Shown here: piece by piece, positions 1 through 58,653 of the stretch | Layout: each line of letters begins with the position of its first letter | Numbering within the stretch: position 1 is the first letter of the stretch | Origin: Pseudogymnoascus verrucosus | Lineage: Eukaryota | Reading direction: 5' to 3' (one strand) | Assembly (NCBI GenBank): GCA_001662655.1 | Contig: KV460249.1 | Length of the DNA: 64,000 nt | Notes under the pieces: model-generated | Database searches by the model: none | Told to the model about the DNA's origin: nothing | The model's input: only the letters and a program-made list of their open reading frames with translations | Made by a program: the position numbers and the translations under genes

Positions 1-3000
1 CCGTTTAGACAAGAACCTAGGGGAGCAAATCACACCTCGAGTAAGGCCACGATGTAGTTAAAATATAAGCTTGTGGAATACGACGCGCAAGACGAACAGC
101 AGGAGAACACTTAGGGACCTAAACCCTAGGAACTACGAGCAGACTAAGCTGCTATGGACTACGAACCCACCGATAGAGACGTAGAAAGGTTACGTGTAAC
201 CATGGAGAAATCTGAGCTCACGGGCAAGACAAAGGAGGAACAGGAATTGACAAAGTTAGATGCATCAAGGATTGATCACCCCTAGCACCCATATATATTC
301 TAGGAACACTGCAAGTACGATGACTATGAGAGTCACCTACGGAAAAAGACCTAGTATCGACTATTTCTGAAAATCGCACCTTAGGTCTACTTTACGGATA
401 TAGACCAAATTCATGCCCTTAGACGAAGTCAGTCTAAAGGAGAACTACCGTTAAAGAAACAACAACAGGTATACGAGAAATACCTGCACCTACTAGATGA
501 AGCAGAAGGATGGGGAGGACAATCTTCCTAAGGACCGCCCATAGAGGATGATGAACATCACTATTACTCCTTAGACAAGTCAAAAAACTAAGAGTCCTTG
601 ACGGTAGGCCACCGGCGAGTGACAAAGAGAGGCCTAGTACGAAGTAGCTGTGCGCCACGGGAGGCAGCATGCAGCTATATGTGGTCGCTAAGATACAACA
701 GCGACACCTCCGAGCCATGATTGACTTAGGAGCAACGGGCAACTTTATGACGAAGAAAGTAGCAGACGCTTAAGGTTTCAAAACGCAAATGAAAACCGAC
801 CCTTACCCACTCATAGTCGTGGATGGAGAGCCCATCTCGACTAACAAGGGGATAGTGACCTACGAGACGGTCCCATTAGAAATGGTCATGCTACGCGGAC
901 ACAAGGAAACGATCTAATTTGACATTGTACACATAGACAACCATGCATGTATCCTTAGTGTGCCGTAGCTTAAGAAACACAACCCCTAGATCGACTAGTA
1001 GAACGAGAAAGTTGTAATGAGCCAGTGCGCGTGTAAACAACGAACGGACACGCTACAACGGGAGAAACCATCCTAGGGCCGACGCGAGGTGTGTGCGACC
1101 TCTACAGAGCCTAGTGACCTAGCCTAGGCACCCTCACTAACGAGTATACTAGTGGAGTATAAGGAATACAAGCAGCTATTCTAGGAAGGCCCTAAGAACG
1201 AGGCGCTTCCTAAGCACCAACTATAGGATCATGTGATACCCTTAGAAGAAGGAAAGAGTCCACCGTTCGGACCAATATACTAGATGTCAGCAGATGAGCT
1301 AAAACTGCTAAAGGAATACATTAACGATAACCTTAAGAAAGGATTTATTAGACCATCTAAATCTCCTACAGGAAGCCTAATGTTATGGGTTCCTAAGAAG
1401 GATGGGAGCAAACGACCCTACGTGGACTATCGAGCATTGAACAACATAACAATAAAGGATCGATACGCCTTACCGTTAATCAATGAGTTACACGATAGAT
1501 TCTAAGGAGCTAAGATCTTCACTAAGCTAGATCTGCGTGGCGCGTACAACCTAATCTAGATAGCCGACGGCGAGGAGTAGAAAACAGCATTCCGCACCCG
1601 CTATAGCCTATTCGAATATCAAGTCATGCCCTTTAGGCTAACTAACGCCCCCGCATCTATGCAACGCTTAATGAATGACGCTTTGCATGAATATCTAGAC
1701 ATATTCACCATCGTTTACTTAGACGATATACTAGTATACTTAGCAAACAAGGACGAACATGCTCGGCATGTTAAGCTCGTCCTCTAGAAGCTAAAGGAAT
1801 ACAATCTACTATTAAAGCCAGAGAAGTGCGAGTTCCATAAGAACTAAGTCGAATTCTTAGGTTACATTATCAGAACGCACGGCATCAAGATAGACTAAGC
1901 AAAGGTTACGGCAGTGTTAGAATGGCCAACACCAACCACGGTTAAAGAAGTACAAGCCTTCCTAGGCTTTACCAACTTCTACCGTCAGTTCATTACGGGA
2001 TATTCCAAGGTAGCTCAACCACTTACAGAGCTCACTAGGAAGGATCTCGTGTTCAAATGGACAGACAAAGCGGAGACTGCCTTCTAGGAACTTAAGACGA
2101 AGTTCACAGAGGCACCTATCCTTGCAACATTTAACCCTACAAAGAAGATCGTCCTTGAGACAGACGCTTCTAACTTCGCAATTAGAGCATGTCTAAATCA
2201 GCTAGGCGAGAACGGTAAGTTCAAACCAATCGCGTACTACTCTAGGAAACTGTCACCCGCGGAGCTCAACTATAACATCCACAACAAGGAGCTACTAGCT
2301 ATTGTCGTTGCCTTTGAGCAGTGGCGCGTATATCTTAAGGGATCTACCTACACTGTGCAAGTGTAGACAGATTACAAGAACCTCATATACTTCACTACGA
2401 CTAAGGTTTTGAACTGCAGACAAGTCCGCTAGGCAGAAACCCTCGCAGCCTACAACTTCACGATAACCTATCGCAAAGGCTCTGAGAATGCAAGAGCAGA
2501 CGCTCTCTCTAGAAGGACCGACTACATCGGCCTAAAGGAAGAAAGACCTAGAGTAATATTAAAGAAGACAGACGTAGGAATGCAATACAACGAACTACTA
2601 GCCACGATCGCCATCGTGGAAGACACGGAACTTGAGCAGAGACTCAAGAACGCTTACGCAACAGACGAAATAGCGAAGCGAACCCTAAACAAAGTCGAAG
2701 GAAACTTCTCCATTAACGAACAAGGGCTAATCCGATTCAAAGGATTAGTGTATGTCCTAAGTCAAATGAGACGCCTGCTAGTGCAAGAACAACACTCGTT
2801 GCTAGCACACGGTCATTAGGGAGTAACACGAACCTTCGAACGAATCGCACGACACTACTACTTCCTAGGTCTAAGGAAGTAGGTAGAAACAATTGTGTTA
2901 GGATGCGACATTTACTAGAAGTCAAAAGCAAATAGACACGCACCATATAGACTTTTAAAGTCCCTACCAACACTAAAACGAGCATAGTCCTCGATAGCAA

Positions 3001-3996
3001 TTGACTTCATTGTCAAGTTGCCATCATCAAAAGAACCAATGACAGGATTTGTTGCAGACTCCATTATGGTCTCTAACTACAGGCTTACAAAAGAAGCACA
3101 CTTCACGCCGTTTAAAGAAGCGTCAGACGTGAAGGCATTAGCATATATCTTTCTAAAAGTCATTGTCGCAGCGCATAGGCTACTAGACGAGATAATTTCA
3201 GATAGAGATAAGCTCTTCACATCTAAATTCTAGCAGACAATCATAGCGCAGCTCGGAACAAACCACAAGCTGTCCACAGCTTTTCATCCACAAACGGATG
3301 GACAAACAGAACGAACTAATTAGACGTTAGAGGCGTATCTACAAAGCTACGTTAATGCTAAATAGGACAACTAGGTCTAGTACCTACATTTAGCAGAGTT
3401 CGCATATAATTCGTCACTATTAGAGGTAACAAAAGTCTCACCATTCTTCACTAACAACGGATGGCAACTAGAGGCGTATAAGACGCCAAGACTAGATAAA
3501 TTTCGCTCTAAGGAAGGAACGTTAGAAGTATCAAAGATACTTTCCTTCTAGAAACAACTGGCGACGGACATCTAGTTCTTAAATGAACGATCCGCTACAT
3601 ACGCAAACAGGAAGCGCAGTATAGAACCTGCCTTTAAGGAGGGGGATAAAGTATACCTACTCCGGAAACACATCAAAACGAAACGACCAAGCACGAAGTT
3701 AGACTTTAAGAAGTTAGGACCATTTAAGATATTAGAGAAAGTCAGCTTAGTTAATTACAAGCTGTAGCTACCTAAGAACTCCAAACTCCATCTAGTGTTT
3801 CATGTCTCATTATTAGAACTAGTAAGAGGGGATGCCCCGATTGCGACAGATACTGAACTTCAACCCGAAAATGAGATCATTGAATATAAGGTCGAGGCGA
3901 TCCTAGACAAAAGGTTAGTAGGACGCCAAGAAGAGTTTTTGATAAAATGGAAAGGTTACGAACCTACAGACAACTCATAGGAGTCGAGGGGAAACC

Positions 3997-4551
3997 TTAG
4001 CTACCTAGAGTTGCTAGCGGAGTTCCACCGTTAACACCCTAACGATTGAAGAACCTAGGGGAAAGGGCCGACAGGTAGTCGTGCTTAGGGACGGCGCTCC
4101 TAGGGTTAGTTACGGAAGGACTAGCGAGGTGACCGTAGGCTTTAGCTTCTTACCGCTCACGTTCTTCCACCTCCTCTAGTTCGTTAAGGGTCTTTAGACC
4201 GCGGCGAAGCATCTTAGCACCTCGGGTCTTGAGGAGATCCTGCTGCTGCTTGAGGCGGTTGAGACGGGCCATAGCAGTTGCCACGGCCTCGCGAGTCATG
4301 TAAGTTTCGAGTCGAAGACAGTCCTCTTCTTTCTATAGCGACTGCTAGTCACTAGCAGAGGGACTAGAGACATCACAATTGTAGGAATTCGAACGAACAC
4401 ATTCATTACATCGTTTTGAGGATGCAGAAGCGAGGCAGCAGAGACCTCGTTTCTCGCAGCGGGAACAGGAAGGCATTTCAACCCCTTCGCGGGTTATGCG
4501 GTTAGCGAGCAGTTTACGTTCTTTGATTTTTAAGTGTTTAGAGGAAGACAT
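3997..4551 (-). pseudogene. Antisense accessory ORF of the Gypsy element: Cys6 zinc-cluster-like domain plus coiled coil (~184 codons, with RIP stops)
   Basis: ATG at 4551 gives MSSSKHLKIKERKLLANRITREGVEMPSCSRCEKRGLCCLASASSKRCNECVRSNSYNC. The same frame continues past RIP-type stops into AMARLNRLKQQQDLLKTRGAKMLRRGLKTLNELEEVEERER and ends at TAA 3999-3997. Confidence 0.75.
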
Positions 4552-4664
4552 GGTCGTGGCCTTGCCCACCCCACGAATATAGGGGACCCACTACGCTTAA
4601 GTAGGCTAGTGGATCCTTAGTTAGCAATGGCCTACGGGACTAGGCCTCGAGGGAGGGGACCTAG

Positions 4665-5126
4665 TGTTATGGCTAAAACATGCAACCCATATGCTGCAAG
4701 ATAGAATAATAAGGTAAAATAGCTTGCGGCTAATTAGCAGCAGGAAATGGACGCAGAGATTGTAGGTAGCTTAGTTAAGGAGGGCACCTTTAGGAAAAGG
4801 TACCTTTCTTAGAAGGTACCTAGCAAAGGAAAGGTGCCTATTAGGAAAGGCACCCATGCAGAGCAAGGTGCCTCCTTAGAAGGGCACCTATGGGAATCGG
4901 TACCTGCAATAAGTGTGGCACCTCTTATAGGACGCACACGTGATTGGATTAGTAGGAATAGTNNNNNNNNNNNNNNNNNNNNNNNNNNNNNNNNNNNNNN
5001 NNNNNNNNNNNNNNNNNNNNNNNNNNNNNNNNNNNNNNNNNNNNNNNNNNNNNNNNNNNNNNNNNNNNNNNNNNNNNNNNNNNNNGAAACCTCTATGAGT
5101 CTTATAGGTTAAGACCTAGCGTTACA
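4665..5126 (+). repeat. 3' LTR of copy A (interrupted by an assembly gap at 4963-5085)
   Basis: Starts TGTTATGGCTAAAAC just after the PPT and ends CCTAGCGTTACA. Matches the LTRs at 8857-9385 and 10244-10772. Confidence 0.93.
4963..5085. other. Assembly gap (N run)
   Basis: Run of N inside the LTR. The spanned LTR is ~67 bp shorter than the 529-bp intact copies, so the gap size is only an estimate. Confidence 1.
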
Positions 5127-8100
5127 AGTTGGTCCTTCTGCTAAGAGCATCTGCTCTTGCATTCTTAGAGCCCTTATAATAAGTTATTGTAAAGTTGTAG
5201 GCTATAAGGGTTTCTACCTAGTAGACTTGTCTATAGTTCAAAACTTTAGTCGTAGTAAAGTATATAAGATTCTTATGATCTGTCTACACTTGTATAGTGT
5301 AGGTAGATCCCTTAAGATATACTTGCTACTACTTAAAGGCAACGACAATAGCTAGCAGCTCCTTGTTGTAGATGTTATAATTAAGCTCTATAGGTAACAG
5401 TTTCCTAAAGTAGTATGTAATTAGTTTAAACTTACCGTTCTCGTCTAGCTAATTTAGACATGCTCTAATCGCAAAGTCTAAAGAGTCCGTCTTAAGGATA
5501 ATCTTCCTTATAGGGTTAAATGTAGTAAGGATAGGTGCTTCTGTAAACTTCGTCTTAAGCTCCTAGAAGGCAGCCTCTACTTTATCTATCCATTTAAACG
5601 CAAGGTCTTTCCTAGTAAGCTCTATAAGCAGTTAAGCTACCTTAGAATATCCTGTAATAAACTAACGGTAGAAGTTAGTAAAGCCTAGGAAGGCTTGTAC
5701 TTCTTTAACTATAGTTAGTATTAGCTATTCTAACACTACTATAACCTTTGCTTAGTCTATCTTAATGCTGTGCGTTCTAATAATGTAACCTAAGAATTCA
5801 ACTTAGTTCTTATAAAACTTGCATTTCTCTAGCTTTAATAGTAGGTTGTATTCCTTTAGCTTCTAGAGGACGAGCTTAACATGCTAAGCATGTTTGTCCT
5901 TGCTTGCTAAGTATACTAGTATATTATCTAAGTAAACGATTGTAAATATGTCTAGATATTTATACAAAGCATTATTCATTAAGCGTTGTATAGATGTAGG
6001 GGCGTTAGTTAGCCTAAAGGGCATAACTTAATATTTAAATAGACTATAGTAGGTGTAGAATGCCGTTTTCTACTCCTTGCCGTTAGCTATTTAGATTAGG
6101 TTGTACGTGCTATGTAGATCTAGCTTAGTAAAGATCTTAGCTCCTTAGAATCTATCGTGTAACTCATTAATTAACGGTAAGGCGTACTAATCCTTTATCG
6201 TTATATTGTTTAATGCTCGATAGTCTACGCATAGTCGTTTGCTCCCATCCTTCTTAGGAACCTATAACATTAGGCTTCCTATAAGGGATTTAGATAGTCT
6301 AATAAATCCCTTCTTAAGATTATCATTAATATACTCCTTTAGCAGTTTTAGTTCGTCTGCTAACATCTAGTATATTAGTCTAAACAGTAGACTCTTTCCT
6401 TCTTCTAAGGGTATTACATAATCCTATAGTTAGTGCTTAGGGAGCGCCTTGTTCTTAGGGCCTTCCTAGAATAGATGCTTGTATTCCTTATACTCTACTA
6501 GTATACTTGTTAGTAAGGGTGCCTAGGCTAGGTCACTAGGCTCTATAGAGGTCGCATACACCTTACGTTAGCCCTAAGAGGGTTTCTCCTATTATAGCGT
6601 GTCCGTTTGTTGTTTATACACGCACTAGCTCATTATAATTTTCTTATTCTACTAGTTAATCTAGGGGTTGTGTTTCCTAAGCCACAGTACACTAAGGATA
6701 CATGTATAATTGTCTATGTATATAATGTCGAATTAGATCGTTTCCTTATGTCTACGTAGCATAACCATTTCTAATGGGACCGTCTTATAGGTTACTATTC
6801 CCTTATTAGTTGAGATAGGCTCTCTATCTACAACCATTAACGGGTAGGGGTTAGTTTTCAATTGCATCTTAAAACCTTAGGTGTCTGCTACTTTCCTTGT
6901 TATAAAGTTGCCTATTGCTCCTAAGTTAATTATTGCTTAGAGGTGTTGCTATTGTACCTTAGCAACTATATATAGCTATATGCTGCCCTCTATAGCGCAT
7001 AGCTGTTCCTTACTAGGCCTCTTATTGTCGCTTGTTAGTAGCCTACCGTTAAGGACTCCTAGTTTTTTGACTTTAATTGTCTAGTGGATCGTTGCTTCGT
7101 AAGGATCCCCTTCATTAATTCCTAGTTGTAGTATACTAGTCTTTGTCTAGTAGGGAAGTAGGCATAGTCCGTCTTCTTAAGGTAGTGCTATAAGCAGTCC
7201 TAAGTATAACACTATAACTATAGTACAAATTTGTACTAGGGGTAATTAGTCCTAGATGCGTCTTGTGTCTATAGTTTGTCCCCTTCCTTGTTAGTAGTAG
7301 CTCTGTTAAAACGGTAGCTGTTTGCAGCCTAGATTTCTATAGGCTATAGACCTTTATAGTTATCCCCTAGCTCTAGCTACTCTAATACCTACAGTAGGCT
7401 TTCTTAGTGGTCTTCGTAGACCTCCTTGTTAAGGTAGTATATATTAATGATTTTTCCTCTAGCAATAGCGTCCTAGACGTTATACTTACGAAGTTTATAC
7501 TTAAGCCATCCTATAGCTTCTTGTTCTATGTAGTTTGCTCTATGTAGTTCCTACTAGGTAGGGTATCTAAGTTAGCATCTCATTTTACAGACTATAACCT
7601 CCTAGTCTTATGTAGTACCCTACTACATTGCTAGTAGCCTAGGTATAGGAATTCCTTCGTTAGTGACGTTTTAGAGCACTGTCTCTTTGTAGACTTCTAC
7701 TACTCCTGCTACTTGTTCCTTAAAGAGGGTCTTTTACACGCTTTCTTTAAAGGCGCTTATCCTACGTTCCTAAGAACTAGTAAAGACCTCTTTAACAGCT
7801 AACGAATCGTTGCTATTGTCTTCTCCATTTAATGTATCGAATTCCTCGAGGTCCTAGGTAGTAACTTCCTAGACCTCTTTTCCTTTAGACGTAGCAGCTA
7901 GTTGTCCTTACTAAGTGGCATTAATTTGCTTACTATACTTCTGTCCTCCGTTCCCTTTCTTTAACTACTTGCAATCCCTAGCTATATAGCTAGGCTTGTT
8001 ACAATTAAAGTAGAGTCGTTCCTTAAGCTGTTGCTCCTTATTAGGATTATAGGGCTAGTTGCCTTGTTTAAAGGTAGCGTTGAGTTCTATTAGCTAAGGC

Positions 8101-9385
8101 TAATAGCTTCTCTGCTTTAGTCTCTTCTAGACCTAAGTAGGTTTCTATCCTCCCTTCTTAAGTCGACGCTTGTAGTGGCGATTGTTAATTAATGTAGTAG
8201 CGAGGATTAATTTCTCTAAATCGTCTAGACAGACACTACGAGCAATCTTGTCCTTAATAGAGTCCTTTAAGCTGTTATAGTACCTTGCTTATAAGGCATC
8301 GTCGTTCTAATTAGTTCGTCCTATGTACTGCTAGAATTCGGCAGTGTAGGACGTAACTAATCCTATGTGTTAGATTTTTAGCAGGTGTCGTTCCACTGTT
8401 CTCTTAGCGTCTAAGTTGCTAAACACCTTAGTAATCTAGGTCTTAAACCCCTTCTAGGTCCTAAAGATTTCTCTAGTAGTAACTGCTATGTTAGTGTAGA
8501 GTTGTCCCTTAAGTCCTTTCTTCTCTAAGTACTTATTAACGAAGAACTTAACCTAGTTAAAGGCAGCCCCTCTTAAAAGGGCTATAGCCTAAAGGACTTA
8601 GTTAGCTTCATTCTTAAGTATATAAGCATTAAATCTAATGTATAAGTTGCACTTAAGGAGAAAAGCCTTAAGCTTGTGTCGTTCTCTACTATAGGGCTTA
8701 GGCATCTAAACCTTAACGACTTGTTTATAGGCTAGGGCTGTTTCTATAGCAGTAGAGACTACTAGGGAAGCTGTAGGTTCTAGGGACTTGCTCTTTCTAA
8801 CGGAAGACATGTTGCTTTATGTATAAGCTAGTAACTTGTAGAAGTGGTGCTTAAAGTGTAACGCTAGGTCTTAACTATAAGACTTATAGAGGTTTTATTG
8901 CGTTAGTTTACTTAATAGAGGAGGCAGGGGATTAGACACAAAGGCTTTTATAAAACACGTTATAGTATATAATAGAATACTATATTAAGTTAAGCATGAA
9001 GCTCCTATCTAAGAACTATCTATCTACTTATATAGTAGCGTCGTGCTAAAGGGAATAGTTAGAATAGCAGACTCTCTAACTATTCCTACTATTCCTACTA
9101 ATCTAATTACGTGTGTGTCCTATAAGAGGTGCTATACTTATTATAGGCACCGATTCCCATAGGTGCCTTTCTAAGGAGGCACCTTGCTCTATATAGGTAC
9201 CTTTCCTAATAGGCACCTCTCCTTTGCTAGGTACCTTCTAAGAAAGGTACCTTTCCCTAGAGGTGCCCTTATTAACTAAGCTACCTATAGTCTCTGCGTC
9301 CATTTCCTACTGCTAATTAGCCGCAAGCTATTTTACCTTATTATTCCATCTTGCGGCATATAGGTTGCATATCTTAGCTGTAACA
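5127..9385 (-). mobile_element. Ty3/Gypsy copy B of the same family: 5' LTR, gag, PR, RT, RNase H; truncated after RNase H; heavily RIP-mutated
   Basis: The reverse complement aligns with copy A from ~577 to ~2523. Gag ATG at 8810. Decayed CCHC knuckle YFNCNKPSYIARDC at ~7970-8010. Sequence stops abruptly at the copy A LTR end. Confidence 0.95.
8857..9385 (-). repeat. 5' LTR of copy B (529 bp)
   Basis: TG...CA termini. Reverse complement of 10244-10772 apart from transitions. Confidence 0.95.
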
Positions 9386-10243
9386 GCTACCTTTAAACCC
9401 CCTATGTAGGTGTCGAGGAAGGAAACTATAAAAGGGTTAATAGAAAGGTTGTGCTAAAAAGGGCGTTTAGTTGAATAAATGGCTCTGAAATTAGCATGTG
9501 TATAATGATTAAGGGAAAGGGATTAAGGGCTAAGTCTTTAAGACATACTTAATGCTCTATCTAAGGCTATGTAGGGCGTTAGAATTTATAGAGGGCCTAC
9601 AATCTAGGAGTGAGCCATTTAGCTGTTTACAACACATATAGTGCTAATATTAGCTAATGAGTTAAAAGAACTAATGCCTATAGATGTCATCATTCTTATT
9701 TCTATACATTAGTCTTGCATAGCTCTTAGCCTTACTATAGCGAATTGTTTATAAGTGTATTAAAGAGAAGTAGGCATCGTCTATACCCCTACTAGACAGT
9801 ATAAATGCAGACAGATTCCTAGCATTATATAAGTGTAACTTACATTCTCATTTAAGTTTCTTTAGATCGAAGATTGTTTTACCTTATAGCTTTTCTACAA
9901 CATAAACAAGTGTTTTTAACAAACTTAGCAGAAACTGTAGAAAACTCTCTAAGAGTGAGTCATAAAGAGGTTCTAATATCAAAATTTCAGCTAACTGTTA
10001 AAGAACTCAGTTGTGTCAACAATGTGTTAAAATCCACAACGAGCATCTTTACTTAGCTTAAATCAAGATCATTACCTACAAGAAGAGATAATATCTAACG
10101 ACAATATCGACCTTAGCGTTGTAGCGGTAAGTCTTAACAACAGTAGCACTACTAGTTTCTAAGATTAATCGTTATTAGGAAAATGCAAAATATCCTATAG
10201 TAACGCTACTACAAAGTTAGTATCTTCCTAGTTTTCGCTATAC
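9386..10243. repeat. Unidentified AT-rich, RIP-like degenerate sequence between two LTRs
   Basis: TpA-rich with stops in all frames. No recognisable motif. Confidence 0.35.
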
Positions 10244-10772
10244 TGTTACGGCTAAGACATGCAACCTATATGCTGCAAGATGGAATAATAAGGTAAAATA
10301 GCTTGTAGCTAATTAGCAGTAGGAAATGGACGTAGAGACTGTAAGTAGCTTAGTTAATGAGGGCACCTCTAGGGAAAGGTACCTTTCTTAGAAGGTACCT
10401 AGCAAAGGAGAGGTGCCTATTAGGAAAGGCACCTATGTAGAGCAAGGTGCCTCCTTAGAAAGGCACCTATGGGAATCGGTGCCTACAATAAGTGTAGTAC
10501 CTCTTATAGGACACACACGTAATTAGATTAGTAGGAATAGTAGGAATAGTTAGAGAGTCTACTATTCTAACTATTCCCTTTAGCACAACGCTACTATATA
10601 AGTAGATGGATAGTTCTTAGATAGGAGCTTCGTGCTCAACTTAATATAGTATTCTATTATATACTATAACGTGTTTTACAAAAGCCTTTGTGTCTAATCC
10701 CCTGCCTCCTCTGTTAAGTAAACTAATGCAACGAAACCTCTATGAGTCTTATAGTTAAGACCTAGCGTTACA
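10244..10772 (+). repeat. Solo LTR (529 bp) of the same Gypsy family, no target-site duplication
   Basis: TGTTACGG...GCGTTACA. Flanks TATAC and TGAGA do not match. TATATAA at 10595. Confidence 0.95.
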
Positions 10773-14506: not shown

Positions 14507-14909
14507 GTAATGAGTATATAGAAGTTCCTTACACTATAAAAAAATTAACAAAAATGAAAGGTAATAGGCAACAGGCAGTAGATGAAGTCTTAAGAGGGTG
14601 CAAACAACAACAGGGTATACGGATCTTTTGCCCTTTATTTAATCTTACTCTTTATCCATTTATTCCCCCCATTTCCCCAATTTCCTATTCCAGCATAGTC
14701 CCATCCAATTCTCCATCATCCCAAAACGTGGCCGCAACAACAATTCCCCGATCCAACCAATAATTCCTCCCTCGCTTCTCCCAGCTTCCACAGACAGCTC
14801 TCCCCAACCACGCAACCGTAGCTCCCTTCCAACTCGAGCAGCAACGCAACGCACGCGGCGCTGTCACACTACGAATCCACGCAATTGAGGTTTCGTGAAG
14901 TTCGACATC

Positions 14910-16376
14910 ATGGCTGCTGTAATCCAAGGTCTCTTCGGAGGGTCAAAGGACGACCAGCCCAAGGTCGTGGCGGATAATGGTGCGTCTCCCAATCTCAATC
15001 CAAATCCCAATCCATTCATTCGCCCCCTTCTCCCCCCTTCTCCCTCCCCCAATCCTCACACCTCCCCAACGCCCCAATCCACCACCACCACAACCACCTC
15101 TCTAACCCCTCTCCCAGACTTCGCAGACTTCGCCTCCGCCCCCGAACCAACCCCCGCCTCCTTCGCCGCCCCCGCCGGCACCACCCCCCTCGCCGCGACC
15201 GCCACACCCGCCCTCCCCTACACAAAATGGTACAACATCCACGAGCGGCACTCCCTCTCCGAGTTCAAGGGCGAAGGCTACATCCTGCTCCTCCTCCTCG
15301 CGCTGGGTACAATCCACATCCTCGGCACACGCGCGAACCGCCGCCGTGCTCGCGGATGGGCCGTTGCGCACGCGCCAGTCTTGCATAATGAGTTTGCGCT
15401 TGTGGGGTTTGCGCCACAGCAGCCGGGGGCGGGGGATGCGGAGGGGGAGGGACTTGCGAGGGCGATTGAGAAGGCGGGGAAGGATGGGGAGGTGTTGAAG
15501 GAGGTTGGACTCAGCAATTTCCTCGGATACGCTACTGGGCGACTTAATGTTGCCTTCCTCGACATTGAAATCGACCTCCTCAAGCGGTACAACCCGGTTC
15601 TTCAGTTCATCGAGAACGCAGCGGGGTTCTTCTTCGAATCCATGCCAGCCCCTGTGGAGCGCGTGTCGGCGATCCTCTACCCCTTCGATGGGAAAGAGGC
15701 CTTGACTGTCCCCGGCCTCCCTGGTATGGCGGAGCTGAAGGGCGGGAAGAGCGGGTACGACAATTTCGTCTGGGCCGTCGTGCATAAAGATCGCATGCGC
15801 CAGCTGCGCGACGAGAGATACGACGTCAGTATCACTGTCACCAAGGACCACCCTAGACTCCCGGAGTGGGCGACTGTCATGTCCGAGAGCGCTGAGATCA
15901 CCGAGGCGATGCTTACACCCGCTCTTGTGGCTGCGGTGGAGAAGGCGGGGGAGGCGTTCGAGCATTTGATTATCACTGACCAGCCCACCGACCAGCCTCT
16001 CAGCGTTGACGAGACTGTGTCGAAGAAGCGAGTCTACCTCTCCCTCCGCCTTCCCGCCTCAGGGGATTACGAGGAGACGCTGCCGATCTTCACGTATTTC
16101 ATCCAGCTTGCTGACTTTTTGGTTGAGAAAGCGCATTTCAGACCGGAGGTTATGAAGAAGGTGAAGGGAGGGAGGGAGGATGTGGTGAAGAGGTTGGTGA
16201 AGGCGGATACGGATGGGAAGGCGGAGGAGAGGGCGCTGGAGAGGGAGAAGGCGAAGAAGGCGAAGAGGGATAAGGAACTAGCAGGCTTGGATGCGAAGGC
16301 GCAGAAGAAGTTTTTGGAGAAGGAGAAGGAGAGGGAGATGAAGAGGAGTATGAAGAAGGGGAGTCAGAAGGGTTAG
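14910..16376 (+). CDS. PAT complex subunit CCDC47-like / DUF1682 ER membrane protein
   Basis: Single TM segment, YATGRLNVAF, FVWAVVHK and a Lys/Glu-rich coiled-coil tail. In-frame 138-nt intron at 14980-15117 (GTGCGT..CTAAC..CAG). Confidence 0.88.
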   Translation: MAAVIQGLFGGSKDDQPKVVADNGASPNLNPNPNPFIRPLLPPSPSPNPHTSPTPQSTTTTTTSLTPLPDFADFASAPEPTPASFAAPAGTTPLAATATPALPYTKWYNIHERHSLSEFKGEGYILLLLLALGTIHILGTRANRRRARGWAVAHAPVLHNEFALVGFAPQQPGAGDAEGEGLARAIEKAGKDGEVLKEVGLSNFLGYATGRLNVAFLDIEIDLLKRYNPVLQFIENAAGFFFESMPAPVERVSAILYPFDGKEALTVPGLPGMAELKGGKSGYDNFVWAVVHKDRMRQLRDERYDVSITVTKDHPRLPEWATVMSESAEITEAMLTPALVAAVEKAGEAFEHLIITDQPTDQPLSVDETVSKKRVYLSLRLPASGDYEETLPIFTYFIQLADFLVEKAHFRPEVMKKVKGGREDVVKRLVKADTDGKAEERALEREKAKKAKRDKELAGLDAKAQKKFLEKEKEREMKRSMKKGSQKG

Positions 16377-25586: not shown

Positions 25587-25868
25587 GAGTCGGGACAGCG
25601 GGGAATGCGGGGTTCCAGGATTTAAAGTTAGTTTCCTTGTCCTTGGCAGGTGCATGTCTGTGCCTAATATAGGGGTAGATCGCCTCATGACGCCACTACC
25701 TACGTTATAACTATGCTTTCTTTCCTCTCCCCTCCAGATATAATCACGTAACGTTACGTTACATATTAGACATGTCTTAACGGGCGAGCGGAGAGGGCAT
25801 GGCAGTTCTATATTACCCTCAAGTATCAGCAGACAAAATGGACAAAATCATCGCCTCCCTTACCGTCC

Positions 25869-27745
25869 ATGGCAATGTCTTTGTCTCATTGCTTCTTGCT
25901 TGTCACAGCGGTATCTCGCCTTTTGGCAGGTGCCGCTGCGACGCCTATCCTGACTGTGTCGAATGCGGCGCCAGTCGTTGATCTAGGCTATTCCCAATAC
26001 GAAGGAACAACTTTGAGCTCAGAGGTTGACCAGTACCTGGGGATGCGATTTGCAGCACCTCCGCTGGGCAACTTGAGATTCCGAGCCCCACAGGAGCCTG
26101 CTGCAACGACAGGGATACAGGAAGCCAAGACTGTAAATACCTTAAAACCATCGTCTTCCTATATAATTATCATACTAAGCAATCTATAGCTTCAAACCGT
26201 CTGCCTAGGAAATGGCGTCCAGTTACCCTCTACTTTACAATCCGAAGACTGTCTTTTCGCCAACGTTTGGACCCCTGCGTCGGCTACTATTACGTCAAAA
26301 CTCCCTGTTTGGATATACATCCAGGGAGGAGGGTATGCGAGTGATTCAAACGGGCGATACAACGGTTCAACCGTGGTTGAACAGTCAGGCCAAAATGTCG
26401 TCGTTGTCATGTTTAATTACAGGGTTGCGGCGTTTGGTTTCCTAGCTAGTGAGAAAATAAGGGCGAATGGGGATCTCAATGCGGGCTTGCTTGACCAACA
26501 ACTGCTGTTCCGCTGGGTGAAGAAGTATATCCAGCAGGTATGTTTTTTCTACACGATTTCGAGATATAATCTCCCAAATGCTAACACACTGTGGCAGTTT
26601 GGAGGTGACCCGGATCATGTAGTCATTCATGGAGCATCTGCAGGAGCTGGATCCGTAGCTTTGCATTTGCTAGCATAGTGAGTATTCTATAGGTAGTATT
26701 CCGGTTTATCCCTGCTAATATCGTGCAGTGGTGGTCGGAATGACGATCTCTTCATTGGGGCTATTGGGGAGTCCGTCTTCCTCCCTACTTCGCCCAAAGT
26801 CTCTGAACTCGAGTGGCAGTTTGACCAGTTCGTCAGTGATGCGTCATGTGCTGGTTCAGCTGATGAATTGGAATGCCTCAGATCGCAAAACACGACAACC
26901 CTGCAGGCAGCAAACAAGGGGAGGCCATATCCTGGACAATCGAAATCCCCTAATTGGTACTGGACTCCTACTATCGACGGAGATTTCCTCCAAGACTACC
27001 CTTACAAACTGCTTGAGCAAGGGAAGTTTGTTAAAGTGCCCATTATGGTTGGAGGTTTGTCTCGGTCCCTCTCGCACTGTTGTTAATGCTAACCTCTCTT
27101 CAAGATGATACTGATGAGGGCACATCATTTGCTGACAACGCCGCATCTCTAGCTGATGTTGCTACATTTATGACGAGAAACTACCCCCGTCTATCTGCCA
27201 ATGATACCGATGCCATAAACGCCCAATACCCACTCATGTCACCCCTTCCCAAACACAACCCCTATTTCCCCTCCGCATCAGCCGCCTACGGCGAGTCCAC
27301 CTTCATCTGCCCAGGAAACTTCATCTGCAACTCCTTTGCGACTCACGTCTCCCCTAACAAAGTCTGGAACTACCGATACAACGTCAACAGCACCAATTAC
27401 GACGACGCCGGGCTAGGCGTCGTGCACACCATCGAGACACAAGCTGTTTTCGGACCAGGTAACGTAGGCGAGACTCCAGCGGCTGACATCCAGTCCGGCA
27501 TCACCACCGTCAATAGAAATATCGTCCCCGTGGTCATGAACTACTGGATTAGTTTTGTGAGGGCCCTGGATCCGAATACGTACCGGTTTGCGAGCGCGCC
27601 GCGATGGGGCGAGTTTGGGGATGGGAGGGATGGAGGGAGGAGGCTGAGGTTCGAGACTAATGCTACGGAAATGGAAGTGGTGCCCCGGGACCAGGTGGAG
27701 AGGTGTGAGTTCTGGAAGGACCTGGCGGTGGTGATGGAGCAGTGA
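25869..27745 (+). CDS. Secreted type-B carboxylesterase/lipase
   Basis: Signal peptide, YLGMRFAAPPLGNLRFRAP, SEDCL, IQGGG, NAGLLDQ, FGGDPDHV, GASAG nucleophile, DEG and HTIE. About 4 introns. Confidence 0.93.
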
Positions 27746-29376: not shown

Positions 29377-30624
29377 CTATACCACCCCTCTCACAATTTT
29401 AATATCCGTCCTGACCCTGATTCTCCCATCCCTAGATTCCTCCTCATCCATCCCAAGATCCTTCTCCTCCCTCTCCACCCTCTCATTCATCTTAATATAC
29501 ACCGAGTTCCCCAACTGACTCCCAGACTTCCGGCGTGTGCCCTGCGACTTCGAGCCCGTCCCGTACCCGACACCTTTTGAGCCCTGTGAGCCGAGCGTCC
29601 CTGCGCGCCACGACGAGAAGGTGAAGAGGCCGCGGATTGTCGGGAGACAGGCGCAGATCATGCCGACGGAAGGCTCGATGTGTGTCCAGAGGGTGGCTTG
29701 GTAGACGGTATCTGCGGCGGGGTTAGCACAACCATGCAAGCTGGGAATTGGAAAAGAGGAAGGGGGGGGTTACATGTAGTGTCGGCAGGTTCGATATAGA
29801 AGAGGACGACGATGCGGTAGACGCTTGCGAAGCAGACACTGGAGGTGGTTAGCTGGGTTTCGATTCTGAGTAGAGAAGGAACGCACAAGCCGCCGAGGGC
29901 GAAGACGCAGCTGAGCGCGAGCTTATCCTGCCACGAGCGCTTGAGGCGCCAGATGATGGGCAGGGGCAGGCCGAGGATGACAAAGTCCATGATGACGTTG
30001 AAGGTCTGGTTAACGATGAAGTAGGTGGTTCCGTCGATACACACGGCGGGGACAGACTTGTCCCAATAGCCCCGTAGAGGTCGGCACTGAAGTGCACATG
30101 TGAGGAAGATGGCGGCGGCCCAAAGGCCGATGAGCCAGTTTATGAGGGCGGAGATGCGGTGAAAGGTCGCGCCCGAGAAAATGCGGCGGTAGAAGCAGAT
30201 GATGGAGATTTTGAGGACGGGGCAGAGGGCGAAGTAGGTGAATTGGTTCGCGATGAAGATCTGGGGATGTGTTAGGGGCTGGAAAATTTGGGGGTAGAGG
30301 GGGGGTGTTGGACCTTGCCGAATATAATGAGAGTTTCAGGAGAGAGCTCTGAAAAATGAGTCCCGTTACCGCCGATGGCGCACCCTTTGTTTTTTATGTT
30401 AGCTGATAGCTGAGTTTGCACAGGGACATGATCTCACAGAAAATCAACTGCACAAGCATCCCATATAGTAGAAACAGCGCCGTAAAACAGAGGTAGTCAT
30501 CTATCTCAATCTTGACCCGGCGCTTGAGCCTAGCGAAAACGCGAAGGATGGTAGCGATTGTGGCAAGACCGACTAGCACCGTGACGATAATGATCATCTT
30601 CCATCCCCTCTCACTGGGCGCCAT
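29377..30624 (-). CDS. Pth11-like (fungal rhodopsin-domain) integral membrane protein
   Basis: LRVFAR..DDYL, KISIICFYRRIF, QCRPLRGYWDK, DFVILGLPLP, W.HIEPSVGMICACLP. Several introns. No CFEM domain. Confidence 0.9.
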
Positions 30625-33858: not shown

Positions 33859-34896
33859 AGCGATGTTGGTTCTGCAGAAACAGCGACATTATAAAAATTG
33901 CTTGGGAGGTGGATCTACCAATGGTCCACGTAAAAAAGGCTGCATATACCGGATTTAGTATCTATTGTAGTAATAAACCATTTCCTTATTTGTATTTAAC
34001 GTCCGTTGCGAAAATGCAGCTCGACACAATACTATACCCACACTCGTACCTCCTCCAAGAATATACGCTGATAAATGCACCCCCCCCCCCCTTTTCGTTT
34101 CGTTATACTCCCATGCCTCCTATGTAGCTATTAGCGTTGATGTTAGTCAATCGAGCAAGGTTAAATCGATGGTGCGCTCACATCCGCTGAAGAACCCGTT
34201 CTGGGCGGTCCGATCCCAGTCTAACCCCTGTCCTGCCCCGTATCTCCTTCCTCCCCTGTCTATGTCCGTGTCCAGCGTCTAGAATAACCGTGTGACGCAG
34301 CCGATCATGTTCATCGTTTCCATAACAAGCGCCCGTGAACCAGATATTACACGCAGCGGGCATATACGACATATTAAGCACCGAACATTAGGACCGATGA
34401 GTCTGTCACTGCCGTCGGTGATTTACAGTTAATTCGTATAGATGTGGTTTGCAGATTCCGAAACAATTTAAATTATATATGCATGCATCTACAAGCACCC
34501 CTTGAAGCGTGCCATACGGCTGGGTCGAGCGAATGTATGCGTAAATTTCCCGTATTCTTGCTAAATGGCTCATAGGGGATGAAGGCCCGCACCGGCCTCG
34601 GGGCCACTCCGACCGCCAAGTACTACTCTACGTGTACCTGAGCTTTGAACCTTCTTTTTTTTCACATGACACTATGATAGCTGCGGAGACGTTACACGCA
34701 GTCTTCAATGCTACAGCTTAGCTAACCCTATGGTTTTGAAAGTGGACCTTGGTGGCACCTTGGTATCGGAGGGTGATGATGCCACTTCGAACCCAAAACA
34801 CAATACTTGAGCGCAAACCAAGGCCAGCGGGGTAACAAAAGAAGATACCAGTTCAACCTCAGACACCTACACTCTCGTGAGAACAAAACCGACGCC

Positions 34897-36598
34897 ATGC
34901 CACACACCAGCACCGACGCGGCATCAAATGACACCACCAAAGGCGATGCCCCGCCGCAAATCACCGTCCCCTCCTGGATCAACGGCATCGAAGAGACCGG
35001 CCCCTCAACCTTCGACGTAATAAGCCCCTACACCAACACCACCTGCTGGACCAGCACCTCCGCCACACCCTCCGACGCCCTCCGCGCCGTAGACGCTGCA
35101 TCCGCCGCCTTCCCCGGCTGGTCAGCGACCAAACCCACCGCGCGGCGCGACATCCTCCTCCGCGCCGCCAACCTCCTCGAGGAGCGCACCGAGGAAAATG
35201 CCGAGATCATGCGCACGGAAATGGGGGCTGACGTAGGCACCTCGCAGTTCTTCGTCGTGCCACTCGCTATCAAGATGCTTCGTGATGTCGCGGGGCGAAT
35301 TACCTCTGTCTGCGGCAGCCTGCCAACTGTGGAAGAGGAGGGCCAGAGCGCTATCGTGTATAAGGAGCCCATGGGTGTCATCCTGGGCATAGTTCCTTGG
35401 TGAGTCAGACCCCATATTCCTTTCCCCCGCTTGACGCCCCCTCGGCGCCTTGTTCGCTATCGATCCCATGCTAACCCCCCGCCTCCAGGAACGCACCCTA
35501 CGTCTTCGGCATCCGCTCCGCCGCCACCGCCCTCGCCGGCGGCAACACCACAGTCCTGAAATCGTCCGACCTCTCCCCGCGCTGCTACTGGGCCATTGGC
35601 CGCGCATTCGCCGACGCTGGCCTCCCCGCCGGCTGTCTGAATATCGTCTCTTGTCGTCCTGCCGACGCGCCCGCCGTCGTCAACGCCATGATTGCCCATC
35701 CTGCTGTGCGCAAGATCAACTTCACAGGTAGCACGTCGGTCGGGCGCCGCGTCGCACAGGAAGCGGGGATGCAGCTGAAGCCCTGCCTGATGGAGCTAGG
35801 CGGGAAGAACAGCGCGATTGTGTGCGAAGATGCTAATCTCGACGTCGCCGTGCCATCCATCATCGCAGGGGCATTCTTAAACGTACCCCCCCCCCCCCCT
35901 CTCCCTAATCAAGTGACAATGCTAACCACCGCCCCCCACAGTCCGGCCAAATCTGCATGTCCACCGACCGCATCGTCCTCCACTCCGCCATCGCCCCCGC
36001 CTTCCTTGCAGCCCTCAAATCAGCGCTCTCTTCAGCCCCGCCCTCCGACGCCCCTACCCTGGTCTCCGCAGCCTCAAAAGCACGTGTCCAGTCCCTCGTC
36101 ACGTCCTCCCTCGCCGCCGGCGCGCACCTCATCCACGGCTCCGTCGACGCCGCCGAACCGGAGGGGAAGGCATCGAGCATCCGCCTTGCACCTGTCGTCG
36201 TCGGAGGCGCAGGCGACGAGGATCCCCTCTGGTTGGAGGAGTCGTTCGCGTCGCTCGCGGCGTGCAGGGTGGTGTCGTCTGATGAGGAGGCGGTGCGGGT
36301 CGCGAATAGTGGGGGGTATGGGCTGTCGGCTGCTGTGTTCACGGAGGACTTGAGGAGGGGGTTTAAAATTGCGAAGAAGCTGGAGTCAGGGTGAGTTTTG
36401 TCCTGCGGGGGGTGTGGGTTAGTGAGTGAGTGAGTGTATACTAATGGGAATAGGGCTGTGCATATTAATAGCATGACGGTGCATGACGAGCCGGTGTTGC
36501 CGCATGGGGGTGTGAGGAATAGCGGCTGGGGGAGGTTCAATGCGAAGGAGGGGCTGGAGGAGTTTCTGGTTACTAAGACTGTGACGTGGAAGGATTAG
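34897..36598 (+). CDS. Aldehyde dehydrogenase (salicylaldehyde/vanillin dehydrogenase-like)
   Basis: GIVPW/NAP, INFTGST, MELGGKN, GQICMST (catalytic Cys), EESF, YGLSAAVFT, PHGG..SGWGRF. Three introns. Confidence 0.93.
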
Positions 36599-42009: not shown

Positions 42010-45000
42010 ATGGGCTCCATTATTCAGAAGCTATTGCTTTTAACAGCTATTGCTACACATGCCTATGGCTCCTCAAAAGGGCTTAAAGAAATAACGGGGG
42101 TGAAGTTCCATCAACCGTCTGCGGCAGAGATGCAGCGTGCCCACGAGGCCTTCTCTTCTCAGAGCTTCCAAAACAAGACGGCATACGAGATGTAAAGACA
42201 TCCGATCCTGAACTTGTTCAGCTTAGGGATGTTAGTACTGCAGAACTCCAACAGGCGAAGGCTCTAGTTGCCACGGCACATACTTCCCAGGCAGCGTATA
42301 ACAAGTGGAACATGGAGAACCCCAGCTTCAACAACTATCACCACAAGGGAACGGGGAATACTGCCGAACGCCGGGATACTAAGTCTCCCCCTACCTTCTC
42401 ACGGGAGACCTTAGATGCCATTAAGCTTGTCGGCACTGTAGATGCACAGAATATGCTCAAGAACGGAACCTTGCCGAACTACAATAATGCAACGTTCTGG
42501 GCCCACAAGCCAGATTCAGACACCAACTTCCGGGGCCCCAAAAATGTTAAGAGGGCCAATGATGACTCATGGCTATCTCAGATGCAGCATGGATCTCAGC
42601 CTTTTGGTGGCGACTCAAGTTATGTGGTAAGTAGGTTTTGTTGCCTTGTTGGTGAATTATGCTAATTAATAGGTCTGGCGTAACGTCATGGACTACGGCG
42701 CAGTTGGGGATGGCGTGGCGGATGATACCGCTGCCATTAACAAAGCTATGTCTGATGGAAACCGTTGTGGCGCAAACTGCGCTGGGTCGACAGTAAAGGG
42801 CGCAGTCATTTATTTTCCGTTTGGAACTTATCGAGTGAGCAGTAGTATAGTCTCCTACTATAACACCCAAATTGTTGGTGAGATAAACTCTGATGGCAAT
42901 TCTCCCGTCATCGAAGCTGCGACTACATTCACTGGCAACGGGGTTATTAGCAGTGACGTCTATCTGGCTGATGGAACGACAGAGTGGTACATTAATACGG
43001 TGAGTTTCTAATTGTTATATGTAGACGTCTCTAACTATTAGGCCAACTTCTATCGTCAAATTCGGAATTTAGATATAAATCTTCGGTTTGCAACAATGCA
43101 AAATATCAAGGGTATTCACTGGCAAGTCGGTCAAGCCACAAGTATTGAAAATGTTAGAATCTACATGACGGATAAGTCGTCGTCAACCCAAGTTGGCATT
43201 TGTAAGCTTAGGACCTCATGATAGCCTGTCCACGCCGCTTACCAAGATAGTTGCGGAAAACGGCAGTGGCGGCTGGTTTAGCGCCATCTCCATGATAGGG
43301 GGGCTGTACGGGTTTCTTGGAGGTAACCAGCAGTACTCAGTTGGCGACATTAATATTGTCGGCGCTAAGAATTGTATTGGTATCATCTGGGATTGGGCTT
43401 GGGTGAGTTTCTGGAAGTTTACAACGATAAGTACTAACTATGTAGTCCTGGTCCCGCCTAGTCCTCGAAGACTGCGACGTCGGCATAAACTTAACTCCGC
43501 CGGGCTCTAATTCAGCCTCCCCAGTTGGCTCCGTTATGATTGTTGACAGCGCATTCGTTAAATGCCCTGTCGCTATCCTGACGTACAGCTTTGCTGGGAG
43601 TACAGGAGAACAAGGGACCACGGTGCTCACTCTAAACAATGTTCACTTTGTTGGAGACACAAACTTTATTGTTTTCCCGGATGGCACTGGCCTTGTGCAA
43701 AATGTTTCGAATTCGGTCATTCAATTTTGGCAGATAGGAGATCTAGAAGCAGATGGTGCCACGCATGACGGGCTGTTTTTTGTTAATATACCTAGACCAG
43801 AAGTTCTCACTGTTACGGATGCCTTTTCTTCACCACAACAAGGCTCGTTCTATCGCCGATTGTAAGTTTGGATTGAGTAAACGTGGCCCTACTGACTATG
43901 TGTAGTAAGCCGACGTACCAAGGAATATCTGCTTCATCTATTCTTAATGCGAGGGCGTTAGCAAAGGGTATGTCATAGGCAATTTACCCACATTAGCTAA
44001 TTTGTTTTAGGTGATGGTGTTACAGATGATACAGCTGCTCTTCAAACTATGCTGTTTTACTGCGCGAAGAACAACTGTATCTTATACGTTCCTGCTGGGT
44101 CGTACATGATTTCTGCCCCTATATTAGTACGTCGTCTACACCATTTTGTTCCTAGCTGATTATGATAGATCCCTAACAACTCCGTCATCGTTGGTGAATC
44201 ATGGTCGCAGTTTGTTGCCTATGGCCAGAACTTTGCAGATGAGTTCAACCCGCAACCGATGATTACAGTCGGGCAAGGCGAATCTGGAATGGTCGAGATG
44301 CAGAATCTATTATTTACATCCCAAGGAGCTCTGCCTGGCTTGGTTCTTGTCCAGTGGAATATTAAAGCCGCAACTCAAGGCTCTGTAGGGCTGTGGGGTG
44401 AGTTGATACCCCGTTGAGAGTTAACTTATAGGCTGACCATTAGACTGCCACTTCCGAATCGGTGGTGCCAAAGGCACTAACCTGCAGAGTGCGCAATGCC
44501 CAAAGCTCACCGGCAGCATCGATCCCAATTGCATTGCGGGTTCAATCATGCTCTTAATGACACAAGATTCTAACGGGTATGTAACTCTCTAATATTAGCG
44601 AATTATCTAACAGTTCAAGCTATTTCGAGAATATGTGGGCTTGGGTTGCAGGTGTGTGCTTTTTAACCATTTATATATTTAAGCTAACGTCATAGATCAT
44701 GACATTGATAATCCTGCTTCCGACTTGTCAAACCAGATAAACGTCTACTTCGGCCGGGGTATGCTGATCCAAAGCCAAGGGCCATCATGGTTCCGTGGCA
44801 CTGCTTCAGAGCACAGTGTAATGTATCAGTATAATGCTATTAATGCAAGCAACATTTATATGAGTATAATTCAGACCGAGTCGCCATGTACGTGTATTAT
44901 TTAACAATGGTACTCTGCTAACGTCGTCTTAGATTATCAAGGAGCTGCGTACACTCAGGCTCCTGCTCCTTTTAGTCCATTATGGAATGGAGATCCATTA

Positions 45001-49347: not shown

Positions 49348-50018
49348 TTTGATGTCTGATTTTTAAATGATCATTCTATTATGGAATGGCATACTTATAA
49401 GAAAATTTTAAGAAATGTGTGGCAAGGCGCCACATTTAGAGTCCACAAAAATGACATCAGAATGGAAATAGTTTCGTTCCTGAGTGTACGTACCAACCAA
49501 AATCTCCGAAACAGCCCTATCAACTGTCTTGTGAAAGTATCTAATCAATCAGGTGTGACAATCTGCAACTATTGTGACAGCGGGGTTTTTACAGGATGCG
49601 AACTGGGAAACGGGAGGAGGTTCGACGACCGAGCACTGGCAAGGATAGCATTGAATGCGACGGGAATGTGCGACGGGAGACGGAAGGGCTGCTAACGGCG
49701 CAATAATTTTGAACGGCAGTGTCGGACTGCCGGTGGGATACGCATTGAAAAAACCGTTGGACCCATCCGAGATCCGTTTAGGGCTGGTTTTTGAATCGTG
49801 AGAGTCTCCCATTGATAATTAATTATGGGTCTGGCGTCATCGCGCATCGCGGGTGGGGAGATCGCGGGAGATCTACACCCAAGCATCTCGGCAGATTTTT
49901 ATTGGCGATTCAATGAATCTGCCGTGAAGTTAGAGTGCATTGCGACTTTCGCTTTATATTGTAGTATAGATAATGGGTTCTTATACGACCTGATGGGATA
50001 TAGACTGAGATATATTAT

Positions 50019-54362: not shown

Positions 54363-54860
54363 GCAGAGAATACTGGATCGGATATGAGAGAATTCTGAGA
54401 AAGGAACCGGAAGAATGCCCTACGATCTATGAAAGGAAAGGAACAAGGATGAAGGAGAATGAGGTGTATATAGTCAGCGAGTTCATGAGCCTGCTTACTG
54501 CTTTTTCGAAACAATTCTAAGTAGATAGTTACATACGTACAATTTCAGATAAATTGGCAAATTTTCCGAGGTAATATGAACTTTTAGGGCGACCTATATT
54601 GAAGTGGCTTATTCCCAAACGTAGGGAGGGTCACTCGTAAAAAACACATTCTCACATTTCCTCTTACAGGCATGCGCTGCATAAGCGCCCAGCCTTGCTG
54701 TTAGTGGGGCTGAGTTGTCACCAACCCCATCACACATCATCAGGTCGACTATATTTAATCCTTTCAAAGCAGACTGATAAATGTAGACCTACAAAATCGG
54801 CCCTACCAATCTTGCCAAATCCGTTGTCACCCGAACTAGGCGACATTCTAATCTCAAGCC

Positions 54861-56513: not shown

Positions 56514-56623
56514 TGGGGCAGTTATCTGTCATAAATGAACCTAAAAACTCGTATATTTATCCGCCCTCCTGCTCATTTCTTCTTTACTTTTACTTACTAG
56601 AATAAGGAAATAAAATCCACTTA

Positions 56624-58322: not shown

Positions 58323-58653
58323 CCATTATGAACTAGGGTTTAACTAAGTTTACTATACGTTAGATTCTTAAGGGGTTAACTAACTACATAGCTTCTGTAT
58401 TATTTACCTTATTACTAGTCCTCGCGGCATATGGGCTGCAGGTTTCGGCCGTAACACTTAGTTGTGTATCTATGATGAGACCGAGATATCTACATTTTGC
58501 ATCCTGGTCGCTGTTCCTGCCAAGCAAACCCGTTACCCCAGCAACCCCACACTACCCTCCATCCCACTTCCTCACAACCCCACCACCAAGGTAAGGTCCC
58601 ACGCAACGACGCGTGCCACACACCGACGACCTACGACGACGACGACAGATACG

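Follow-up and report, generated by a model that had tools for sequence, protein, structure and literature searches.

A brtn-family antisense gene of fungal Ty3/Gypsy chromoviruses and its inactivated copy in Pseudogymnoascus verrucosus

One group of fungal Ty3/Gypsy chromoviruses carries an extra gene backwards. This gene, a member of the brtn family, is flanked by the chromodomain end of pol on one side and by the polypurine tract and 3′ LTR on the other, and its 3′ end overlaps that of pol. A copy lies in the window, by which we mean the whole stretch of 64,000 nucleotides analysed here: positions 3997-4551 of its minus strand almost certainly represent a brtn-family copy inactivated by C>T/G>A mutation, and this copy makes no protein. 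Taken by itself, the window copy is a dead repeat of an ordinary kind. The BRTN family merits attention because it is large, under strong selection and tied to one position in Gypsy chromoviruses; if its protein binds DNA, these retrotransposons carry their own transcriptional switch.

The window copy and its carrier element

Reading the minus strand of the window from 4551 to 3997 gave a single frame of 184 codons followed by a terminal TAA (3997-3999). Four internal stops interrupt it, namely TAG at codon 69 (4345-4347), TAG at codon 73 (4333-4335), TAA at codon 134 (4150-4152) and TAG at codon 171 (4039-4041), so that the window copy fails as an open reading frame; it is a pseudogene member of its family and as such does nothing now. 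Its translation contains the cysteine string CSRC-EKRGLC-C-LASASSKR-CNEC-VRSNSYN-C, that is C-x2-C-x6-C-x8-C-x2-C-x7-C, and an additional Cys at residue 38, where the closest relatives have Arg.

The carrier was assigned to the Ty3/Gypsy chromoviruses by its pol. The intact pol of the metagenome locus L001, 78% identical to the window pol, encodes an aspartyl protease, RVT_1, RT_RNaseH, Integrase_H2C2, SH3_Tf2-1 and Chromo, in the order protease-RT-RNase H-integrase-chromo, and together with the chromodomain detected in the window this is the pol order of a Ty3/Gypsy chromovirus. The window pol frame, read through its stops, runs beyond 3997. Downstream, the 3′ LTR is 91-92% identical to two LTR copies at 10241-10540 (+) and 9385-9089 (-), which confirms its boundary, and the A of the antisense ATG at 4551 lies 114 nt from the LTR start. 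The spacer between the gene and the purine tract presumably holds the 5′ UTR or part of a putative antisense promoter. An earlier sequence-only reading of this DNA had described a minus-strand frame of about 184 codons broken by RIP-type stops, located between the chromodomain and the polypurine tract, with the pattern CSRC-x6-C-x8-CNEC-x7-C, an ATG 114 bp from the LTR and a tail overlapping the end of pol; the cysteine pattern proved exact, and the frame, its location and its overlap were all recovered here (Table 1).

Table 1. Coordinates of the features of the window, with strand and supporting evidence
Feature	Coordinates	Strand	Evidence or remark
Ty3/Gypsy chromovirus pol, riddled with stops	511..4120	+	end near 4120 inferred from intact L001
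Chromodomain	3795-3977	+	PF00385, 34.2 bits against a cut-off of 25.1
Tail-to-tail overlap of the 3′ ends of pol and antisense gene	3997..4120	.	inferred by homology in the window
brtn-family antisense accessory gene, now a pseudogene	3997..4551	-	translation; 85% identity to intact P0002
Long helix and second helix with invariant MLRRGLK (residues ~66-143)	4123..4356	-	P0002 model helices 79-130 and 135-156, pLDDT >90
Six-cysteine module with Zn2Cys6-type spacing (residues 29-59)	4375..4467	-	translation; Cys conservation in relatives
Spacer upstream of the antisense ATG	4552..4649	-	between gene and purine tract
Polypurine tract AGGGAGGGGA	4650..4659	+	same tract adjoins the LTR in L001
3′ LTR, begins TGTTATGG (TG at 4665)	4665..4962	+	cut by N run 4963-5085
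GGYRCC array, nine motifs, 16/18-nt period, inside the LTR	4783..4922	.	also in the other two LTR copies and L001
CCDC47	14889-16373		
Carboxylesterase exons	25770-27742		
Fungal rhodopsin-domain protein	29380-30335	-	
Aldehyde dehydrogenase	34780-36391		
Rhamnogalacturonase-like protein	42673-43507		
Sugar transporter	47551-49362	-	
HET domain protein	54852-56510		
Ankyrin repeats	56606-58012		
Haspin-like kinase	58462-60486		

Homology to BRTN and breadth of the family

Of 143 candidates compared with the window translation, in which stops were bridged as X, 14 proteins matched at E ≤ 0.01. The best relative, P0002, is an intact protein of 197 aa (85% identity, E 5e-92), and homology to intact proteins excludes a chance frame. 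A tblastn search of the whole window with P0002 returned this place as the sole one (83% identity over 193 residues, E 6e-95). A hypothetical protein of Pseudogymnoascus sp. 24MN13 belongs to the 90% cluster of P0002, hypothetical proteins of Pseudogymnoascus species are also its closest named relatives, and the nearest clusters in the ESM Atlas are unnamed hypothetical proteins of Ascomycota. A plasmid collection, irrelevant here, was also searched by blastn with the window DNA and gave no match.

An all-length HMMER search of 1.84 billion representatives with a profile of the family retrieved 1769 clusters at E ≤ 1e-3, of which 746 passed a threshold of E ≤ 1e-10 and 114 one of E ≤ 1e-30; lengths were 99-274 aa throughout the best 150 profile matches. 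A profile search with names gave 163 proteins at E ≤ 1e-5, and the named members are all from Leotiomycetes (Botrytis, Monilinia, Sclerotinia, Stromatinia, Rutstroemia, Hymenoscyphus and Pseudogymnoascus). In an alignment of 55 sequences reaching down to ~30% identity, each of the six cysteines is kept in 54-55 of the 55 and the MLRRGLK motif is close to invariant.

The identity of the family was revealed by P0215, recorded as 'putative BRTN [Botrytis cinerea]' (ACN56558.1, UniRef C0LE46), which matched the profile at E 2.2e-57 and to which the window protein is 38% identical over the full length by BLASTP (E 2e-27). The link to brtn put forward by the sequence-only reading is thereby backed by homology, and the gene family is one already known. 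Zhao et al. 2011 (Virology 417:248) reportedly described brtn as an additional antisense gene of Boty-like Ty3/Gypsy elements in Botrytis cinerea and Sclerotinia sclerotiorum. The brtn gene of Boty-like (BcGypsy1) elements and the gene of the window are alike in their homologous proteins and in a size of ~190 aa, and in Botrytis, too, it belongs to a chromodomain-bearing Gypsy element, in which it has the same orientation and the same place, with pol on one side and the 3′ LTR on the other; unlike Botrytis brtn, the window copy is a pseudogene and stems from a different lineage.

Excerpts of the literature mention a Boty-like element with 'brtn-106' (PMC4227169), report a Monilinia transcript resembling truncated Pol and BRTN (PMC5987419), and name Boty as one of the elements whose antisense ORFs lie between pol and the 3′ LTR; the function of these ORFs is called unknown, and in the excerpted text no clear similarities with other database proteins are described for them (PMC7264820). 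The literature searched on brtn and antisense retrotransposon ORFs yielded no functional or domain study of brtn. The width of the family beyond two species (the 746 clusters at E ≤ 1e-10), its strict placement, its Gal4-like zinc-cluster layout and the conserved overlap with pol may also be absent from the literature searched.

The UniRef label 'Zn(2)-C6 fungal-type domain-containing protein' is attached to four members from three species, and the member P0063 has the source name 'adenine-specific DNA glycosylase', which looks like a mislabel (BRTN profile E 6.8e-49). Gene callers treat brtn-type ORFs as belonging to the host and call their products 'hypothetical' or 'Zn(2)-C6' proteins; a flag marking these ORFs as transposon genes would be appropriate.

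Position, overlap with pol and selection in relatives

One scan of metagenome contigs provided 18 loci, onto which the window pol, translated in three frames with X for each stop, was mapped. In 15 of the 18, the opposite strand directly behind the gene carries the end of a Gypsy pol, and L002, L015 and L016 are untestable because the contig ends at most 34 nt from the match. Counting a second brtn-type copy with the same arrangement in L009, the gene lies tail-to-tail with Gypsy pol in 16 of 16 testable places, which supports the proposal of an antisense gene borne by the element. Identity to the window pol is only 39-78% in the pol of these loci, which indicates that the association between gene and element is old. 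As a side observation, L009 contains two tandem elements of one family whose pol sequences are 92% identical, with a brtn-type ORF in each (L009:233-829 and 6514-7119).

The overlap between the antisense ORF and pol was measured in six loci, those with a pol frame that stays open for at least 150 codons and extends to the ORF, and amounts to 125 nt in L001, 113 nt in L004, L007 and L010, 194 nt in L008 and 89 nt in L009. This convergent double-coding stretch of 89-194 nt is found at 3997-4120 in the window, at L001:818-942 and in five other loci; in it the antisense C-terminus GGTP....GS faces the pol post-chromodomain motif NL.C..LL.EFHR, and both are conserved. For the last ~40 codons, it may be the pol frame overlapping them, and not the antisense protein, that accounts for the conservation.

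The matched part of the gene is free of stops in 10 of the 18 loci and has 3-6 stops in the other eight. We calculated dN/dS by the Nei-Gojobori method for nine intact ORFs, leaving out L015, whose ORF runs off the contig, and reading L010 from the family-aligned start. The sole unsaturated pair, L004-L007, gave a dN/dS of 0.038 (dN 0.008, dS 0.204); dN/dS was 0.20-0.49 with dS >1 in 18 pairs, and dS was saturated in 17 pairs. Loss of the ORF in related elements, loss of the cysteines or a dN/dS of about 1 had been named as signs against a gene, and the relatives display the reverse of all of them.

These data bear directly on the view that there is no gene here and that the frame is an antisense ORF arisen by chance, a by-product of the coding sequence of pol, or a fragment of a host gene placed beside the element by accident. 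Such a view could draw on the broken state of the window copy, on the overlap of its ~40 last codons with pol and on excerpts of PMC8365987, according to which BcGypsy1 carries brtn and the gene is missing from the latest B05.10 genome annotation. It is refuted by the homology to P0002 and a family of hundreds of clusters, by the fact that about three quarters of the ORF lie outside pol, by the same position in all 16 testable places and by purifying selection.

The tail-to-tail overlap of 89-194 nt means that the transcripts of gene and pol must be complementary, and it could be argued that what chiefly matters is the antisense transcript, which would pair with the sense genomic RNA at its 3′ end for small-RNA silencing or regulation, with the protein being secondary. 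A dsRNA role is raised in the excerpts of PMC7264820; in those of PMC8365987, BcGypsy1 with brtn is among three Botrytis subfamilies giving significant small RNAs in culture, and the brtn-type element is a source of small RNAs linked to aggressiveness. An RNA-only role leaves the six invariant cysteines, the invariant MLRRGLK and the dN/dS of 0.04 unexplained, and we regard it as improbable that the RNA is the main product; an RNA role and a protein role can coexist.

Protein architecture and kinship with Zn(II)2Cys6 domains

An AlphaFold model of P0002, built with the 55-sequence alignment, reached a mean pLDDT of 85 and exceeded 90 over residues ~20-155. The modelled chain begins with a helix, continues through a compact Cys module that contains two short helices and through a 52-residue helix, turns at RRGL into a second helix and ends in a disordered tail. 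Comparison of the whole model by VIA-align gave only generic long-helix or coiled-coil matches (Z ≤ 6.2), which are uninformative. The median net charge over the 55 sequences is +3 for the N-helix, +4 for the Cys module, +3 for helix A, -5 for helix B and -6 for the tail, and this layout, with its basic N-half, long helix and acidic tail, suggests that the element encodes a small regulator that binds DNA.

Zn(II)2Cys6 domains, which bind two zinc ions and recognise CGG-type DNA sites, have the pattern C-x2-C-x6-C-x5-12-C-x2-C-x6-8-C. The cysteine gaps of the window copy (x2, x6, x8, x2, x7) agree with it, and the last gap is x6 in 53 of the 55 relatives. The window protein scored 9.6 bits against PF00172 (E 1.4), below the gathering cut-off of 21, and Pfam gave nothing significant for it; PF00172 matched 11 of 15 family members at E ≤ 1, with a best value of 2.1e-4. 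When the family profile was searched against the PDB, PUT3 ranked first (E 0.031), with an alignment spanning the cluster and the start of the helix.

Structural comparison pointed to the same domain. In Foldseek searches with the whole model and with an 80-residue domain model (pLDDT 88.5), the ten best matches were all Zn2Cys6 DNA-binding domains (E 0.25-6), and such domains made up 15 of the 28 matches shown for the whole model (E from 0.41) and 14 of the 16 shown for the domain model. For the latter, GAL4 was matched at E 0.25 and Pho7 at 2.2-2.6 Å over 32-33 columns. VIA-align returned PPR1 (Z 3.1), HAP1 (Z 3.0) and LAC9 (Z 2.6 at 1.9 Å over 33 residues), in a domain too small for significance.

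In Gal4-type domains the stretch from Cys2 to Cys3 is basic and a proline precedes Cys4. This basic stretch and proline were not found as a family feature in the 55 sequences: Glu directly follows Cys2 in 28 of them and K/R stands at +2 in 42, and the position three residues before Cys4 is Ser in 44 and Pro in one. The Cys2-Cys3 stretch of the family is less basic than the Gal4-type pattern.

Taken side by side, the tests are consistent with Zn2Cys6 kinship and none is significant on its own, so that they point to it weakly. The likeness to Zn(II)2Cys6 factors put forward by the sequence-only reading survives in the cysteine spacing and in the best fold and profile matches, all of which are Zn2Cys6 domains, and falls short in significance, as the PF00172 score illustrates. 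BRTN proteins share with Zn(II)2Cys6 domains (PF00172; Gal4, Put3, Ppr1, Hap1, Leu3, Pho7, AlcR) the spacing C-x2-C-x6-C-x8-C-x2-C-x6/7-C, a helix after a short linker and a basic module, in addition to the best fold and profile matches. They differ from these domains in scoring below the significance thresholds, in the Glu after Cys2 and in having no proline before Cys4, relative to the canonical pattern. Unlike Zn(II)2Cys6 factors, BRTN has only ~190 aa, is without a middle homology or regulatory region, and is encoded by a retrotransposon and not by a host locus. A search for a genuine Zn2Cys6 gene at E ≤ 1e-5 among the 93 ORFs of at least 110 aa in the window found none.

The same features leave room for a real BRTN protein that does not act on DNA, in which the zinc module and helices would bind RNA or Gag/integrase and the protein would serve the element as an accessory factor when particles assemble, when the pre-integration complex enters the nucleus or during reverse transcription. 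The Cys2-Cys3 stretch, less basic than the canonical one, the missing proline and the weakness of all Zn2Cys6 matches speak for this role, as do retroviral-accessory-like roles proposed for antisense ORFs between pol and the 3′ LTR in the excerpts of PMC7264820. Set against it are the layout of a basic zinc module, a long helix and an acidic tail, which is that of small Gal4-type activators, and the best profile match, PUT3, which spans the cluster together with the start of the helix; we consider such an accessory role unlikely.

Proposed working of the intact relatives

The sequence-only reading had suggested an element-encoded regulator or anti-silencing factor transcribed from the side of the 3′ LTR. 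We rate just short of an even chance that the intact relatives are miniature, probably dimeric Gal4-type factors acting on DNA to tune transcription of their element. The protein of ~180-200 aa would be built of four parts: a basic N-terminal helix, the six-Cys module, the long helix and an acidic tail with its conserved FW patch. The basic six-Cys module would bind two zinc ions, and the 50-residue helix ending in MLRRGLK would either pair with a second copy, giving a dimer, or fold back on the next helix. Transcription would start at a putative promoter in the spacer or on the antisense face of the 3′ LTR. The protein would then enter the nucleus and bind DNA, most plausibly the element's own LTR, whereby sense or antisense transcription of the element would be tuned.

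Such a regulator may be likened to HTLV-1 HBZ, a bZIP factor encoded on the minus strand and transcribed from the 3′ LTR. Both are small, transcription-factor-like proteins with a coiled coil, predicted in the case of BRTN, and their genes lie in antisense orientation next to the 3′ LTR of a retroelement, at its 3′ end; HBZ differs in that it has no sequence or fold relation to BRTN and is a bZIP protein instead of a zinc cluster. An HTLV antisense promoter is mentioned in the excerpts of PMC7264820. Antisense ORFs of plant Ty3/Gypsy elements (Grande gene23, RIRE2, Retand, PvRetro13 and the Tat-lineage PMD/coiled-coil ORFs) have the same position and orientation as brtn according to excerpts of PMC7264820 and PMC4408406, and in those of PMC7264820 they are, like brtn, conserved across copies, some of the plant products being nuclear. 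Unlike brtn, the plant ORFs of these excerpts encode PMD, Tr28 or SMC-like domains in another kingdom, and homology between the two groups is neither detected nor claimed.

A bolder form of the proposal, which is possible but rather doubtful, holds that BRTN-family proteins are sequence-specific Zn2Cys6 factors that a whole clade of fungal chromoviruses encodes for its own use, made from an antisense promoter at the 3′ LTR and switching transcription of the element by binding its LTR. If true, they would be a retrotransposon-borne counterpart of retroviral regulators of the HBZ/Tax type and the first known zinc-cluster factor belonging to a mobile element and not to the host, and the obligatory 3′-3′ overlap with pol would couple protein-based and dsRNA-based control.

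The LTR of the carrier contains an array of GGYRCC motifs (GGTGCC, GGCACC and GGTACC), and the same array, of 8-9 copies at a strict 16/18-nt period, recurs at 10362-10483 and 9146-9267 in the window and at L001:1-140 in the unmutated relative; the arrays within the window account for 25 of its 70 GGYRCC motifs. The array may be an enhancer-like array of putative factor binding sites. Upstream of the gene in the other 17 loci we found 0 or 1 GGYRCC motif each and no comparable array. The array was therefore rejected as a common BRTN target, being confined to this element family. Against the view of BRTN as a miniature transcription factor, this confinement leaves no common DNA target visible among brtn-bearing elements.

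Mutations and surroundings of the window copy

Intact natural relatives were used as reference in place of a de-RIPed consensus to analyse how the window copy was inactivated. Its four stops align to W, Q, Q and W of P0002 and to the L001 codons TGG, CAG, CAG and CTG, such that C>T/G>A changes alone explain all four from the P0002 residues and three of the four from L001. Between the window copy and L001 (376-942) there are 118 nucleotide differences across 555 aligned nt, of which 64 are C>T/G>A toward the window and 25 the reverse. These 64 changes lie in a CpG context in 30 cases and in a CpA context in 14. CpA is the context classically linked to RIP. 'RIP-type', as the stops had been called at the outset, is a fair description, though the context is CpG-heavy; the CpG excess possibly reflects a CpG-preferring RIP or deamination of methylated CpG. 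Contigs from four sequencing runs, two of them labelled RNA-Seq but probably DNA, and all of them carrying no strand or transcript information, contained many diverged copies of the element, in which C>T/G>A were the commonest differences and the LTR had a greater depth than the internal part.

The element forms part of a repeat nest at the left end of the window. The nest also includes an inverted second pol copy at 5127-7073 (-), which is more AT-rich (GC 0.31-0.37) and cut by the assembly gap (N run 4963-5085), and the two further LTR copies in opposite orientations. Beyond the nest, ordinary fungal genes follow, nine of which, between 14889 and 60486, are listed in Table 1.
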